From Squalus acanthias (Eukaryota), in NCBI GenBank assembly GCA_030390025.1, contig CM059432.1, forward strand, positions 79,114,001 through 79,178,000: 64,000 bases of DNA, read 5' to 3'. Numbering within the stretch: the stretch's first letter is position 1; every line of letters starts with the position of its first letter. A model generated the notes under the pieces. It ran no database searches. It saw nothing but the letters and a program-made list of their open reading frames with translations, and had not been told where the DNA came from. Shown here one piece after another: positions 5,106 through 17,556 of the stretch. A program made the position numbers and the translations under genes.

Positions 5106-5445
5106 TCTTTTGGTGCGATCAGTAAACAAAAACTGTAACTTAACAAAAATACATCAAATGAAACTTAACAAATTAAATTAAAATTTGTTTGTCGGGAGTT
5201 GATGCACTCCAGTCCCTGCGGTGCCCACCGGTCGCAGAAGGCCTCGAGCATGCCGGCAGACACCGCATGCTCCATCTCCAGAGCCACCCGGGCGCGAATG
5301 TGGCCGCGGAAGAGAGGCAGGCAGTCGGGCAGAACGACCCTCTCGACCGCCCGCTGCCTGGACCAGTTGATGGCTACTTTGGCCAGGCCCAGGAGCAGTA
5401 CTACGAGGAGGTCCCCCGACCTGCCCGCTCCCCTCCGCACCGGGT
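5106..5445 (-). mobile_element. Tx1 (L1-clade) LINE, 5'-truncated 3' end with 17-bp TSD
   Basis: LLLGLAKVAI..RARVALEMEHA..FCDRWAPQGLEC matches the C-terminus of the longer Tx1 copy. Flanks GTTCAAAAGGGGGTTGC (5089-5105) and GTTCAAAAGGGTGTTGC (5446-5462). Confidence 0.8.
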
Positions 5446-6299
5446 GTTCAAAAGGGTGTTGCAGCCATTTGGTTAAGACTAAATTAACATGTATAAAGGG
5501 GGAAAAGGAGAACTGTTTATATTTTGATGCTCAAAACCATACATGAATTAAGAAATGATTGGATGTTCCCCTAATGAACCATAAGTAGTGGTTCACGAAA
5601 GGCTGGTATTGCTACTTCATAACTTGTATGGATCCTGGTTTGAGATGGTGGTCCACTAGGATGTGTAAATATAAGAACACTAATATAAATCATAGGAGAG
5701 AGAGTTGATGTTTTTGGCAATGCAACACTCCACAAACTTACTTTTAAATTAGGAGCTTTGTTGGCTGGTTGTTTCTTAGAGATCTTGAAAATATCCATCA
5801 TAGGAAACAATGGGTTGACTCGGATGCCGTACCCTCTCAACGGGAAGTCAGTCAACTATAAACCTGCTGGGCTCCAGGTGAAGGATCTGATCTTACAGGT
5901 TAGAGAGGTATTTCTGGTGAGTGCCAAGCCATGGTTTCTGAAGCCAATTGTGGATTATCAGGATCATTTTGCTCCCTCTATTTGTACTTTTTGCAGGATT
6001 CTGGGAATTAACAGAAAGGGTGGACATGCAGAAAGTATATGTGTCCAGAAGAAAGAGAGATGCTCTACTGTTGTCTGTAACCCATAGAGATGAAGCTGGA
6101 AATGATAACAAGAAGGAAAAGGGTTGAATTTTGAGTATCTGCAGGATGGGATCCTGGGCAACCTTGAAATTGATCATTCACTTGTGAGGGTGGTAGTGTT
6201 GGAAGGCTACACTTATCATTTTCAGTACCAAACAGTTTATGTGCTAACCCAATGTCCAGTAGTCTTTAAAGGTGGATTTCCCATCTAGATTGGGATGAG

Positions 6300-14050: not shown

Positions 14051-14960
14051 GAGTTAAACCTTTTTGTGTCAAATCTGCTGCCTGATGACATTTTCAGTTC
14101 TTTTGATCTTCTAACCAACTGCATTGACTCTGAGATAGATCAGCCAGCTAGTCAATCAGTGTGGCTACCTTTCTTTCAATTAACTGTGTACCCATTTGCC
14201 TCAGAGTTATATAGATTGTGACAAGCCTGTTGAATTGTCTGATATTGTAATGCTCAGTGTGAGTGTGAAACTTGCTTTCTGATTGGACAAAAAAGGGCCT
14301 CACCTTGATGATAAAGTGCTTGGCAAACATTTAGACATAATTTTGGGCCTGATGATTGCATGTGGTTTTGTCATTGGAAGATGTGTATTTAAGCAAATTA
14401 ACAAAACATTTCTGAAAAATGGTAGCCTAGACTTGCCCCTCAAGTTTTATTGGCTCCCCAGCATAACTTGAGCAGGTTGGGGCTGGAAATGCAGCAGATA
14501 ATGACAATCCACTGGCACCCTGCTCGTCCCTTCTGTGTCCTGAATTTCCAACTGGAAGTGACAGGAGACATATATGGGTGTGCATTTTGTAACAATATAC
14601 AAATGAGGGAAATTACACTAAAATGGAAAATTTAGGTTAGTGACTCCACTGTCTGTTCTGTTAGTGACATGAGAGGTAATTTGTCTCTTAGCATCAGAAA
14701 CCTCTCTGGGTGCAGTTACATTACAAGTTTAGCATTGGTATAAATTGGTTTCTGCTTCACACTGATGCTAAATTAGGAAGGGAGATTTTCCTCTATATTG
14801 TGCCTTGTGTGCACTTCTTTCCAGTGCACAATAGAGAAGAAAAAGGGAGGAGGCCTCTTAAGCCTGGTTTCTGCCCTGTGTACATTTTGCACACACTTCT
14901 CCTCACATGTCATGTGGGGGCTAAGACATTGTACCTGAAACAAGTTTCCATACAATTTGA

Positions 14961-15392
14961 TTTTTTTTTTAATTTAAAATTTGAACATTTTATTTACAGT
15001 TAATGACATTTACAGAGCTCAGGTCTCAGCTCTTTGTACAAAGTCACAAGCCATCATTCCCTACAAGGCAGGGGTCCCAGTCTCTTCAAGTTGGTGATGT
15101 GATCTCCAAGCTTCTTGATCATCTTCTCTTGTTCATTCAAATAGTGGGTCTCCAGGAATTCACACAGATGAGGGTCCGCGCTCCCAGTGGAGAGTTTGTG
15201 CAGATGCAGCAGACTCTGGTTGACATTCTTCTCCATCTGCAGAGCTCTCTGCGTCGCTGAATGGAGCCTCTCGCTCTCCCAGCCAAACAAATGAACTACA
15301 AAGGAACTTAAGTTTTAAAAATTAATTTAAGTTTTTATCAATTAAACCAAAATTACATTGGCTGGGTCGATGATGCACTCCAGTCCCTGTGG
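14961..15392 (-). mobile_element. Chimeric retro-insertion: Tx1 LINE 3' end + ferritin mRNA fragment + poly(A), 12-bp TSD
   Basis: TSD CATACAATTTGA at 14949-14960 and 15393-15404. T10 at 14961-14970, AATAAA on the minus strand at 14989-14994. Tx1 ORF2 end PQGLECIIDPANVILV* at 15392-15342. Confidence 0.85.
15070..15260 (-). pseudogene. fth1: Processed ferritin (H/M-type) pseudogene fragment
   Basis: [61 protein letters not shown] is the ferritin C-terminal half; contiguous across DPH/LC; followed by 3'UTR-like sequence and poly(A). Confidence 0.9.
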
Positions 15393-15624
15393 CATACAAT
15401 TTGAATTGTAATAAGCTGAAAGTGATGTCATGGGGGGCAGCTAATGCATTAGCTCCAATTCCACTAATTGCAGATCATGTGCAGACAACACTTAAGTAAA
15501 TTGGGAGTTGTTGTAAAAGTCGGATAGCCAGGTGGTGAAGAATAGAACACTAGAGCCTAGTCTTCAGTCGCTTACACCTTTTAAATGCTGATTTCAGTGA
15601 TTGATGGCTGGTGGAATTACCAAT

Positions 15625-17556
15625 TAAAAAAAAGGAAGCAAGTGCCCCCTTTTAAAGGGGCACAACCAATAAACCGTAAATTAAACCAAATTTAAATGAA
15701 ACTTAACAAATCAAATCAGAATTTTGTTTCCGGGATGATGAAACACTCCAGTCCCTCCGGTGCCCACCAGTCGTGGAAGACCTCAAGCGTACCGGCGGAC
15801 ATTGTGTGCTCCATCTCCAGGGACACCCAGGCGTGAACTTAGCCACGGAAGAGAGGCAGGCAGTTGGGCCGAACGACCCCCTCAACCGCCTGGACCTATA
15901 GTGGCCAACTTTGCCAGGCTCAGGAGCAGTCCAACAAGGAGGTCCTTTGATCTGCCCGCTCCAATCCGCACAGGGTGCCCAAGGATCAGGAGCGTGCGAC
16001 TGAAGTGCAACCAAAAATTGAGGAGCAGCCCCTTCAAAAATTGGAAGAGGGGCTGCAACCTCTCACACTCTGTGTATACGTGGAACACGGACTCCTCCAG
16101 GCTGCAGAAATTGCATGTGGCCTGGGAGTCCTTGATCCTACTTAAAAAATTTTGCACGGGACTGCTCCATGCAAAGTCCCCAGTACAAAAGGGGAGGACT
16201 CCTGCGTAGAGAGCCCTCCACTGGAGACCCCGCCTCCTCCGGATTGCAAGATGGCACGCCAAGGCATATCCGAATGGCAGATGAGGAAGACAAAGTGGAA
16301 AGTGTGCAAGAGCTGCCCATCCAGGACACCCCTCCTTGCAGAGTGGAAAGGCACGGAAGGGATCTCCGAGAGACGGCTCAAGCTGTGAGGCGCCAGCTCT
16401 TAGGGAGATTTCGGGGCCTGGTGCTGGTGAGAAATTCCGTCCGAATGGAGGTCAGTTCAGACGGGATCGCTCCACACACTTGAGCCTCCTCGACACACCT
16501 AGTGAAGTTGGGGCCGAATGCCTCCTTTAGCGTCTCAATGGCTTTGACCGTGAACCGGATACCTTGCCAGGACACGCGCTGTGCCAGTTTGTCTGGTGAC
16601 ATCCAGCCCACTCCTCCGCCATCCAGTTCGTCCCTGACTCTGGTCACCTAGCCAGCCAGGGCCCTCCCCTCCACCAGCCATCTGAAACCGCGGTCGCGGA
16701 GATGCGGATTCCTGAGCAGCGTCTCCTGGAGGATAGCCGCTACTCCTGACGAGGGAGAACTCCGGCTGGAGACAATCATGTTCCAGTTCCTGATCAGTTC
16801 CTAGTAAAAGGCAGGCAACTCCTGAATTGAGGCACGGCTACACCCCAGTTTTATAAACAGGAGCTGCGTGTCGGAATTGAGGCCGTGCAGCTGGCGGAAG
16901 AAATACGTTGCCAGCGCACACCATCTGGGAGGATTCTCAACGTACAGGTATCTCTGCAGGGTCTGAAGATGGAAGGTCGCAGCCTAGGTACACATGTACA
17001 GCAGTGCCTGACCGCCCTCCTAAGTGGGAGACTCAGAACCACGGCAGAGACCCGATGCTTCCTTTTGTCCCAGAAGAATTCAACAAGCTTCTTCTGTATC
17101 TTGGCGACAAATTCAGGGGAAGGGATCATAGTGACCACCAGTTGACTTATGACCAGCGCATGACCCCTGTAGGACAGCACTCGGAGCAGTCCTGTCGAGC
17201 GCCTTAGGCGAGCGGTGACTTTGGTTCGCCGGCCAGGCTCCCCCGGCAGGGCTAAAGTAGGCTCTCGGGTAGAGGAGATGAGTGGTACTCCAGACATAAG
17301 GCCTGAGCTCCTCCGGCAGGGAGTCCACCCGCCACTGACCCACCAGGAGTCCAGAACATTTCTCCCAGTTGATCCTCGCAGAGGACATGGCAGAGTAGAC
17401 CTGCTGGCACTTGCGCATCTTCCGCAAGTCAATGGGATCCGTGACCATGAGGAGCATGTCATCGGCGTAAGCTGAGAGGACGACCTCCATGCCCAGCTCT
17501 TGCAGAGCCAGTCCCGTCAACCTCTTCTGCAAGAGGCGCTGGACAGGACTCGCCCC
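15625..17556 (-). mobile_element. Tx1 (L1-clade) LINE, 5'-truncated and frameshifted ORF2
   Basis: VVLSAYADDM (RT), SARINWEKCSGL, IQKKLVEFFWD, zinc knuckle CNFCSLEESVFHVYTEC; GC-rich; 3' hairpin GTGCCCCCTTTTAAAGGGGCAC. Confidence 0.9.

Follow-up and report, generated by a model that had tools for sequence, protein, structure and literature searches.

A Tx1 LINE family of Squalus acanthias that ends in spliced ferritin mRNA sequence

Introduction

A case of 3' transduction involving AMAC is said to have been described by Xing in 2006. The 3' transductions of L1 and SVA elements and their transduction groups are treated in two reports (PMC12593883, PMC13009371); the human transduction groups described there are small and recent (PMC12593883). 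The ferritin-tailed Tx1 elements of the spiny dogfish described here resemble these systems (PMC12593883, PMC13009371) in the apparent reading-through of their own end to a downstream poly(A) signal, in having offspring that act as sources, in spreading pseudogene pieces, and in adding further extensions. They differ in that the carrier is a Tx1 element with an autonomous layout, the cargo is a multi-exon spliced mRNA, and at least 116 copies permanently end in ferritin, the junction being present in other organisms as well.

Spliced-on host exons have been described in SVA subfamilies, with exon 1 of MAST2 in SVA_F1 (84 copies) and exon 1 of STK40 in the chimpanzee pt_SVA_D6 (94 copies) (PMC6139936). 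The Tx1 family is similar in that a spliced-on host exon is fixed in a subfamily of about a hundred copies, and the source genes are gonad-expressed in both cases (PMC6139936; 10.1101/2024.09.09.611499). However, the SVA captures are 5', joining a host donor to an element acceptor and placing a host first exon on a non-autonomous element (PMC6139936), whereas the apparent capture by Tx1 is 3', joins an element donor to a host acceptor, and places host last exons on a full-length Tx1 such that its priming end is replaced. The SpIREs of human L1 likewise involve a splice donor in a LINE 5'UTR, and one Tx1 copy described below (L285) is spliced within its 5'UTR in the same manner, but SpIREs are mostly dead ends (PMC5860796), whereas the same Tx1 donor, situated in a downstream element, appears to have founded a successful lineage. 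Chimeras of mRNA or U6 RNA with L1 also contain LINE and host RNA in one target-site duplication (TSD), some with joins at splice sites, although their host RNA is 5' and they are mostly single events (10.1101/2025.02.02.635956), in contrast to the 3' and family-inherited ferritin part. Finally, the features of the Tx1 clade and of Xenopus Tx1 (PMC4494074), namely an APE endonuclease and reverse transcriptase (RT) in ORF2, an ORF1, TSDs, and 5' truncation, are found here too, but with a host-derived 3' end and with no single target sequence evident by inspection among the TSDs.

A literature search found no description of a ferritin-carrying Tx1 or of LINE copies with inherited A-to-G editing; it did not extend to Repbase, Dfam, subscription journals and bioRxiv supplements, which may hold a consensus, and the accessible part of 10.1101/2025.02.19.638963 does not mention ferritin. 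The family described here is a vertebrate LINE with an autonomous layout whose priming end appears to have been permanently replaced by spliced host mRNA, and which still amplifies, with intermediates preserved.

Results and Discussion

A Tx1-ferritin insert within a single TSD

In the 64-kb window (the whole stretch of DNA analysed), CATACAATTTGA occurs exactly twice, at 15393-15404 and at 14949-14960, and these constitute the 5' and 3' copies of a 12-bp TSD that encloses a 432-nt insert on the minus strand. Read on that strand, the insert begins at its 5'-truncation point with the last 16 codons and stop of a Tx1 ORF2 (15342-15392), which read PQGLECIIDPANVILV and match the C-terminus WAPQGLECIVSPGNVILI of an intact Tx1 ORF2 in the same genome, each followed by a stop. 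There follow about 58 nt of a T-rich variant of the Tx1 3'UTR (15284-15341), a family-specific linker of about 25 nt (15259-15283), and a ferritin coding fragment of about 63 codons (15076-15258; E 4e-26 to ferritin H chains) that begins 35 nt inside exon 3, away from any splice acceptor, and extends into exon 4 across a spliced exon 3/4 junction between positions 15168 and 15167. The distal ferritin 3'UTR (14971-15075) contains AATAAA at 14994-14989 and is followed by a poly(A) tail of 10 A (14961-14970). These parts agree with the preliminary description, which had reported a Tx1-ferritin chimera inside one TSD. It had also noted a jump into 3'UTR-like sequence; the jump is real, and can be specified as a 123-nt deletion between two ACCCCTG repeats, with the microhomology at 15069-15075, that removes the last ~20 ferritin codons, the stop and the start of the 3'UTR, and lands in the 3'UTR of ferritin itself. 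Because the DPH/LC position is interrupted by an intron in the ferritin genes of this genome, as had been supposed from vertebrate ferritin H genes, the ferritin in the insert is spliced. The insert thus represents a Tx1 LINE lineage ending in spliced ferritin mRNA, in the form of a 5'-truncated copy.

The T-rich 3'UTR variant has 90 matches in the genome, nearly all of which adjoin a linker or ferritin match. No significant match to the linker was found in the long form described below, 16 of 300 shuffled sequences being equally good, and its interpretation as an edited leader or an inverted piece of ferritin was discarded as insignificant relative to shuffles. Two ferritin-free Tx1 3' fragments are also present on the minus strand of the window. 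One (15744-17547; 80% to the C3 element described below) is a separate insertion with a GC-rich hairpin at its end, 300 bp away from the ferritin-Tx1 insert, and the other is located at 5172-5446 (87% to the C3 element).

The short-form family

With the insert as query, the best 40 of 549 candidates all cover nearly its whole length at 87-92% identity, the window itself aside. The linker has at least 116 genome matches with no more than one mismatch (control, 0), a number that is a floor since the window's own linker is too diverged to be counted, and the 100 that were listed are spread over 21 large and 10 small contigs. We examined 70 copies, 30 from the whole-insert search and 40 chosen from the linker matches. 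They have 55 distinct 3' flanks, and a single alignment spans the Tx1-ferritin junction in 69 of them and the deletion in 64; segmental duplication accounts for just 15 of the 70 copies and was rejected as the cause of the copy number. TSDs were scored by boundary-anchored scans, an unanchored scan having been discarded for its many chance 8-10-mers, and were present in 6 of the 20 assessable copies of the first set (10 others ran off the flank) and, at 10 bp or longer and with two internal matches dropped, in 16 of the 40 copies of the second. All of these TSDs differ; by inspection, no single target sequence is evident among them, and several copies are situated within other Tx1 sequence or next to it. 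Five of 40 copies are at least 6.9 kb long with 5'UTR, ORF1 and ORF2, and one copy of 7.3 kb lies within a 20-bp TSD; both ORFs are intact in none of the 40 copies checked. In each of four other organisms that were examined (B, C, D and E), contigs span the point at which ferritin begins, and the listed pieces from three of these bridge the deletion.

The ferritin-tailed Tx1 copies thus almost certainly form a family. Many copies with the same junction and different TSDs were what the preliminary description had proposed to look for, and its suggestion that a Tx1 subfamily adopted ferritin as its 3' end holds, full-length members included. A one-off template switch as the origin of this insertion, which it had named as the alternative, is refuted by a family with common junctions.

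Second 3' extensions past the ferritin poly(A) are present in 9 of the 70 copies, and such 3' ends were noted in L002, L027, L255, L260, L261, L266 and L278. At the 5' ends of full-length short-form copies (L254, L268, L269, L247) there is a stretch of the Tx1 ORF2 end in reverse orientation; the masters may have been located within nested Tx1 arrays, in which long hairpins could form.

The Tx1 carrier and its 5'UTR splice donor

A ferritin-free full-length Tx1 at C3:124673700-124680692 (L216-L217) has two uninterrupted frames, of 705 and 1306 codons, with endonuclease and RT domains in ORF2. This ORF2 is 51% identical to that of Xenopus Tx1 over 99% of its length, and its most identical partial matches (68-74%) are from sharks and rays; this ferritin-free relative is 88.7% identical to the short-form copy L034. 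The carrier family has the TPRT hallmarks of TSDs, an A-rich 3' end and variable 5' truncation. On these comparisons the carrier is classed as a Tx1 clade LINE, with a predicted APE endonuclease and RT in ORF2 and with Tx1 as its closest relative. AATAAA was absent from the 130 nt of tail examined in all 16 ferritin-free Tx1 tails. The ferritin-tailed family implies that 3' recognition has become relaxed and of the poly(A) type in one lineage of Tx1; this mode is discussed mainly for mammals and plants (PMC3747384).

The 5'UTR of Tx1 contains a splice donor. AG/GTGGGT is present in 25 of 26 genomic Tx1 5'UTRs at the point matching the end of a leader found in the long form (see below), and a pyrimidine-rich acceptor follows ~230-260 nt after it. 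The unspliced donor pattern has 499 genome matches and the spliced-donor pattern has four, one of them exact (control, 6). A ferritin-free Tx1 on C559 (L285:1173-3022) is without exactly the 230-nt GT-AG 5'UTR intron and is 96-98% identical to the unspliced C3 element on both sides of it, and the donor therefore works.

The long form and its splice join

A search with the segment deleted from the short form, in which 40 of 131 matches were scored, gave 25 intronless loci at 88% or higher, the next matches being genes at 83% or lower. Ferritin exon 1 is absent from all 25, and five extend 5' past ferritin into a purine-rich leader, so that ordinary processed pseudogenes were rejected as an explanation; for the 20 long-type copies that are truncated, a host gene missing from the assembly could also be the source. 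The leader is Tx1 5'UTR, as seen from the presence of ORF1 downstream of it in genomic copies, and in four of the five leader-bearing copies it is preceded by the end of Tx1 ORF2. In the long form, the complete 3' end of a Tx1 is therefore followed by an exon of Tx1 5'UTR and then by ferritin exons 2-4, the UTR and poly(A). In L161 the leader (...ATACAG) runs directly into ferritin exon 2 at its first base, such that the join coincides exactly with the Tx1 5'UTR donor (AG/GT) and the start of exon 2. This join is kept in L161 only, being deleted in the other four leader-bearing copies, and no convincing TSD was found around L161. As in 3' transduction, a complete Tx1 end is followed by other sequence and one poly(A), and a single TSD surrounds short-form copies; a junction composed of donor and acceptor, as in splice capture, is seen in one copy.

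We consider it likely that the founder was a read-through transcript spliced from the Tx1 5'UTR donor to ferritin exon 2. A Tx1 would have been positioned directly upstream of, or inside, the 5'UTR of a second Tx1, in the sense orientation and 5' of ferritin exon 2, and its transcription would have continued past the element's end, where AATAAA is absent, with the RNA being spliced into ferritin. The chimeric RNA would then have used the ferritin poly(A) signal and retrotransposed in cis, and daughter copies would have become masters. Microhomology deletions, possibly with a tail swap onto another Tx1 lineage, could subsequently have produced the compact form that amplified most, the ferritin part being non-coding cargo that supplies 3' end formation. 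Such a history would provide a concrete route by which the intron donor in a LINE's own 5'UTR acts as a 3' exon trap in nested elements.

The long form could also be explained by successive events in DNA, in which a ferritin retrocopy with a leader from a Tx1 promoter was inserted first, a second Tx1 was inserted later just upstream, and the pair was then moved together, or in which a genomic deletion occurred at ACAG. The position of 5'UTR sequence immediately after a natural and complete Tx1 end is consistent with this, as are the four nucleotides, ACAG, that the end of the Tx1 exon and the end of ferritin intron 1 both carry; a microhomology join there, in DNA or pre-mRNA, would give the identical junction. 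Against it, no copy was found that has the 5'UTR sequence upstream of the leader and is without a Tx1 end in front, and the first variant still requires the same splice. We regard these successive events as extremely improbable.

Relationship of the two forms

In majority sequences, the short form is 96.5% identical to the long form and 92.6% to the best gene, and 11 derived columns are common to the two forms. A ferritin tree was constructed with 71 rows (30 genes, 28 short and 13 long copies), rows under 200-250 columns and identical rows having been dropped and a midpoint root used for drawing only. It separates LINE-borne copies from genes with support of 98/95, and the short form constitutes one group (100/97), nested among long copies at weak values (88/41 and 95/75, bootstrap not settled). 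The short and long copies are shown by these comparisons to share one ferritin source apart from today's genes. The short form seen in the window probably derives from the long form by deletions, possibly with a tail swap. In a tree of ORF2 ends (36 rows), short and long copies are not joined and the short copies are not one group, a topology with weak support that hints at tail swaps between Tx1 lineages.

These relationships bear on a different origin, in which RT started cDNA on the poly(A) of a ferritin mRNA and jumped to Tx1 RNA, the product then being amplified. The junction in the window, 35 nt inside exon 3 and with an unexplained linker, resembles the outcome of such a switch, for which ~100 ferritin genes could yield abundant mRNA, and the scatter of short-copy ORF2 ends apart from the long form suggests tail swaps, albeit with weak support. 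However, the long-form join agrees base for base with a donor that is functional and with the acceptor of exon 2, spliced mRNA offers no microhomology at that point, and the ferritin of the short form descends from the source of the long form and not from a present gene. Template switching is thus quite improbable as the first capture, although it may account for the step from long to short form.

Ferritin genes and the search for a donor locus

An 800-kb stretch of C27 (5.49-6.26 Mb; L071-L150) contains 105 ferritin groups, of which 100 are genes that have introns and exons 2-4, together with 111 exon-1 matches, and includes many tandem near-copies. This cluster of ~100 genes fits the ferritin clusters with ovary-specific expression described in sharks (10.1101/2024.09.09.611499). 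Short-form copies are located between the C27 genes and have been duplicated along with them; they are mostly on the same strand as the genes, with one antisense copy at 5706879-5707125. A search for the spliced exon 1/exon 2 pattern recovered 77 genes in which GT is present, a single ordinary retrocopy, which is degenerate, and three further matches (control, 3), indicating that ordinary ferritin retrocopies are rare next to LINE-borne ones.

A donor locus was not found in the assembly, and neither was a source element adjacent to the transduced sequence, by which transductions are recognized. The junction of the Tx1 end with the leader is present at four places in the genome, all of them retrocopies, and the sole Tx1 5'UTR in the 800-kb cluster is antisense. 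Two candidates were rejected. At C27:5986066-5988290 a short-form copy is interrupted by a 2.2-kb insert precisely where exons 3 and 4 meet, as if an intron were retained, but the insert has no GT-AG, recurs as a repeat, and is missing from sibling copies, and is a chance insertion that mimics an intron; we take it to resemble an antisense LINE fragment. On C3 a full-length Tx1 is located 1.8 kb upstream of a ferritin gene in the sense orientation, but it is followed by a 5'UTR in antisense, and in exon 4 and UTR the gene shows just 83% similarity.

Since no donor locus was found, cis- and trans-splicing are indistinguishable here. In the trans-splicing version, read-through RNA of tandem Tx1 elements was joined to a separate ferritin pre-mRNA and a donor locus never existed, which accords with the result of the search; trans-splicing has also been proposed for human mRNA/L1 chimeras whose genes are without an intronic L1 (10.1101/2025.02.02.635956). 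However, the ferritin cluster turns over fast and is full of Tx1 insertions, such that a cis donor is easily lost, and the leader is just 74-80% identical to living Tx1 5'UTRs, so that the capture event is old. We consider trans-splicing very improbable, and favor read-through and splicing in cis. The preliminary description had proposed a donor Tx1 in a ferritin gene that used its splice and poly(A) signals. The splice join of the long form to exon 2 agrees with that proposal, whereas the locus it predicted, a Tx1 in an intron-containing ferritin gene, was not recovered, and the window junction is a later derivative with no splice site. Its two suggestions, a donor Tx1 in a ferritin gene and an adopted tail, correspond to two stages of one history.

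A>G changes and coding status of the ferritin part

Three copies (L168, L169 and L170) have 36-40 A>G changes versus 1-4 G>A, and L158, L164 and L165 have 13-19 A>G changes. Many of the sites are common to several copies, and the changes are therefore inherited. They are concentrated in the ferritin coding part, at 34-39 of ~99 A, compared with 0-3 of ~45 in the UTR, and the sites avoid a 5' G (13 of 41 versus 36 of 48, p 5e-5); ORF2, the Tx1 UTR and the leader show no comparable A>G excess. Strand-specific A>G clusters that avoid a 5' G are a signature of ADAR. It is likely that in one sublineage the ferritin coding part was double-stranded as RNA and was A-to-I edited before re-insertion, so that hyper-editing of RNA would be recorded in the genome and passed on by further retrotransposition.

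We also entertain, as a possibility that we hold to be doubtful, that the ferritin tail is a LINE adaptation. A Tx1 that has no canonical poly(A) signal of its own would thereby obtain its 3' end from an mRNA abundant in the ovary, with advantages in processing, stability or shelter from piRNA silencing, and this would be why the tail has moved from one Tx1 lineage to another; the tail could also couple the element to the ~100-gene cluster through sense-antisense RNA, with the inherited A-to-I hyper-editing as a fossil.

An in-frame TAG is present in 37 of 49 scorable short copies. Raw pN/pS values of 0.68 and 0.45 suggested purifying selection, but this was lost under a context-matched null, for which synonymous changes numbered 13 against 13.5 expected and 21 against 17.4 (P 0.63 and 0.17). 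A functional ferritin retrogene, with its whole frame under purifying selection, was rejected. With no exon 1 and neutral evolution, the family spreads ferritin fragments and not genes. The LINE-driven multiplication of ferritin copies that had been envisaged thus holds for non-coding fragments but not for genes, and ferritin copy counts in shark genomes can include such LINE-borne fragments.
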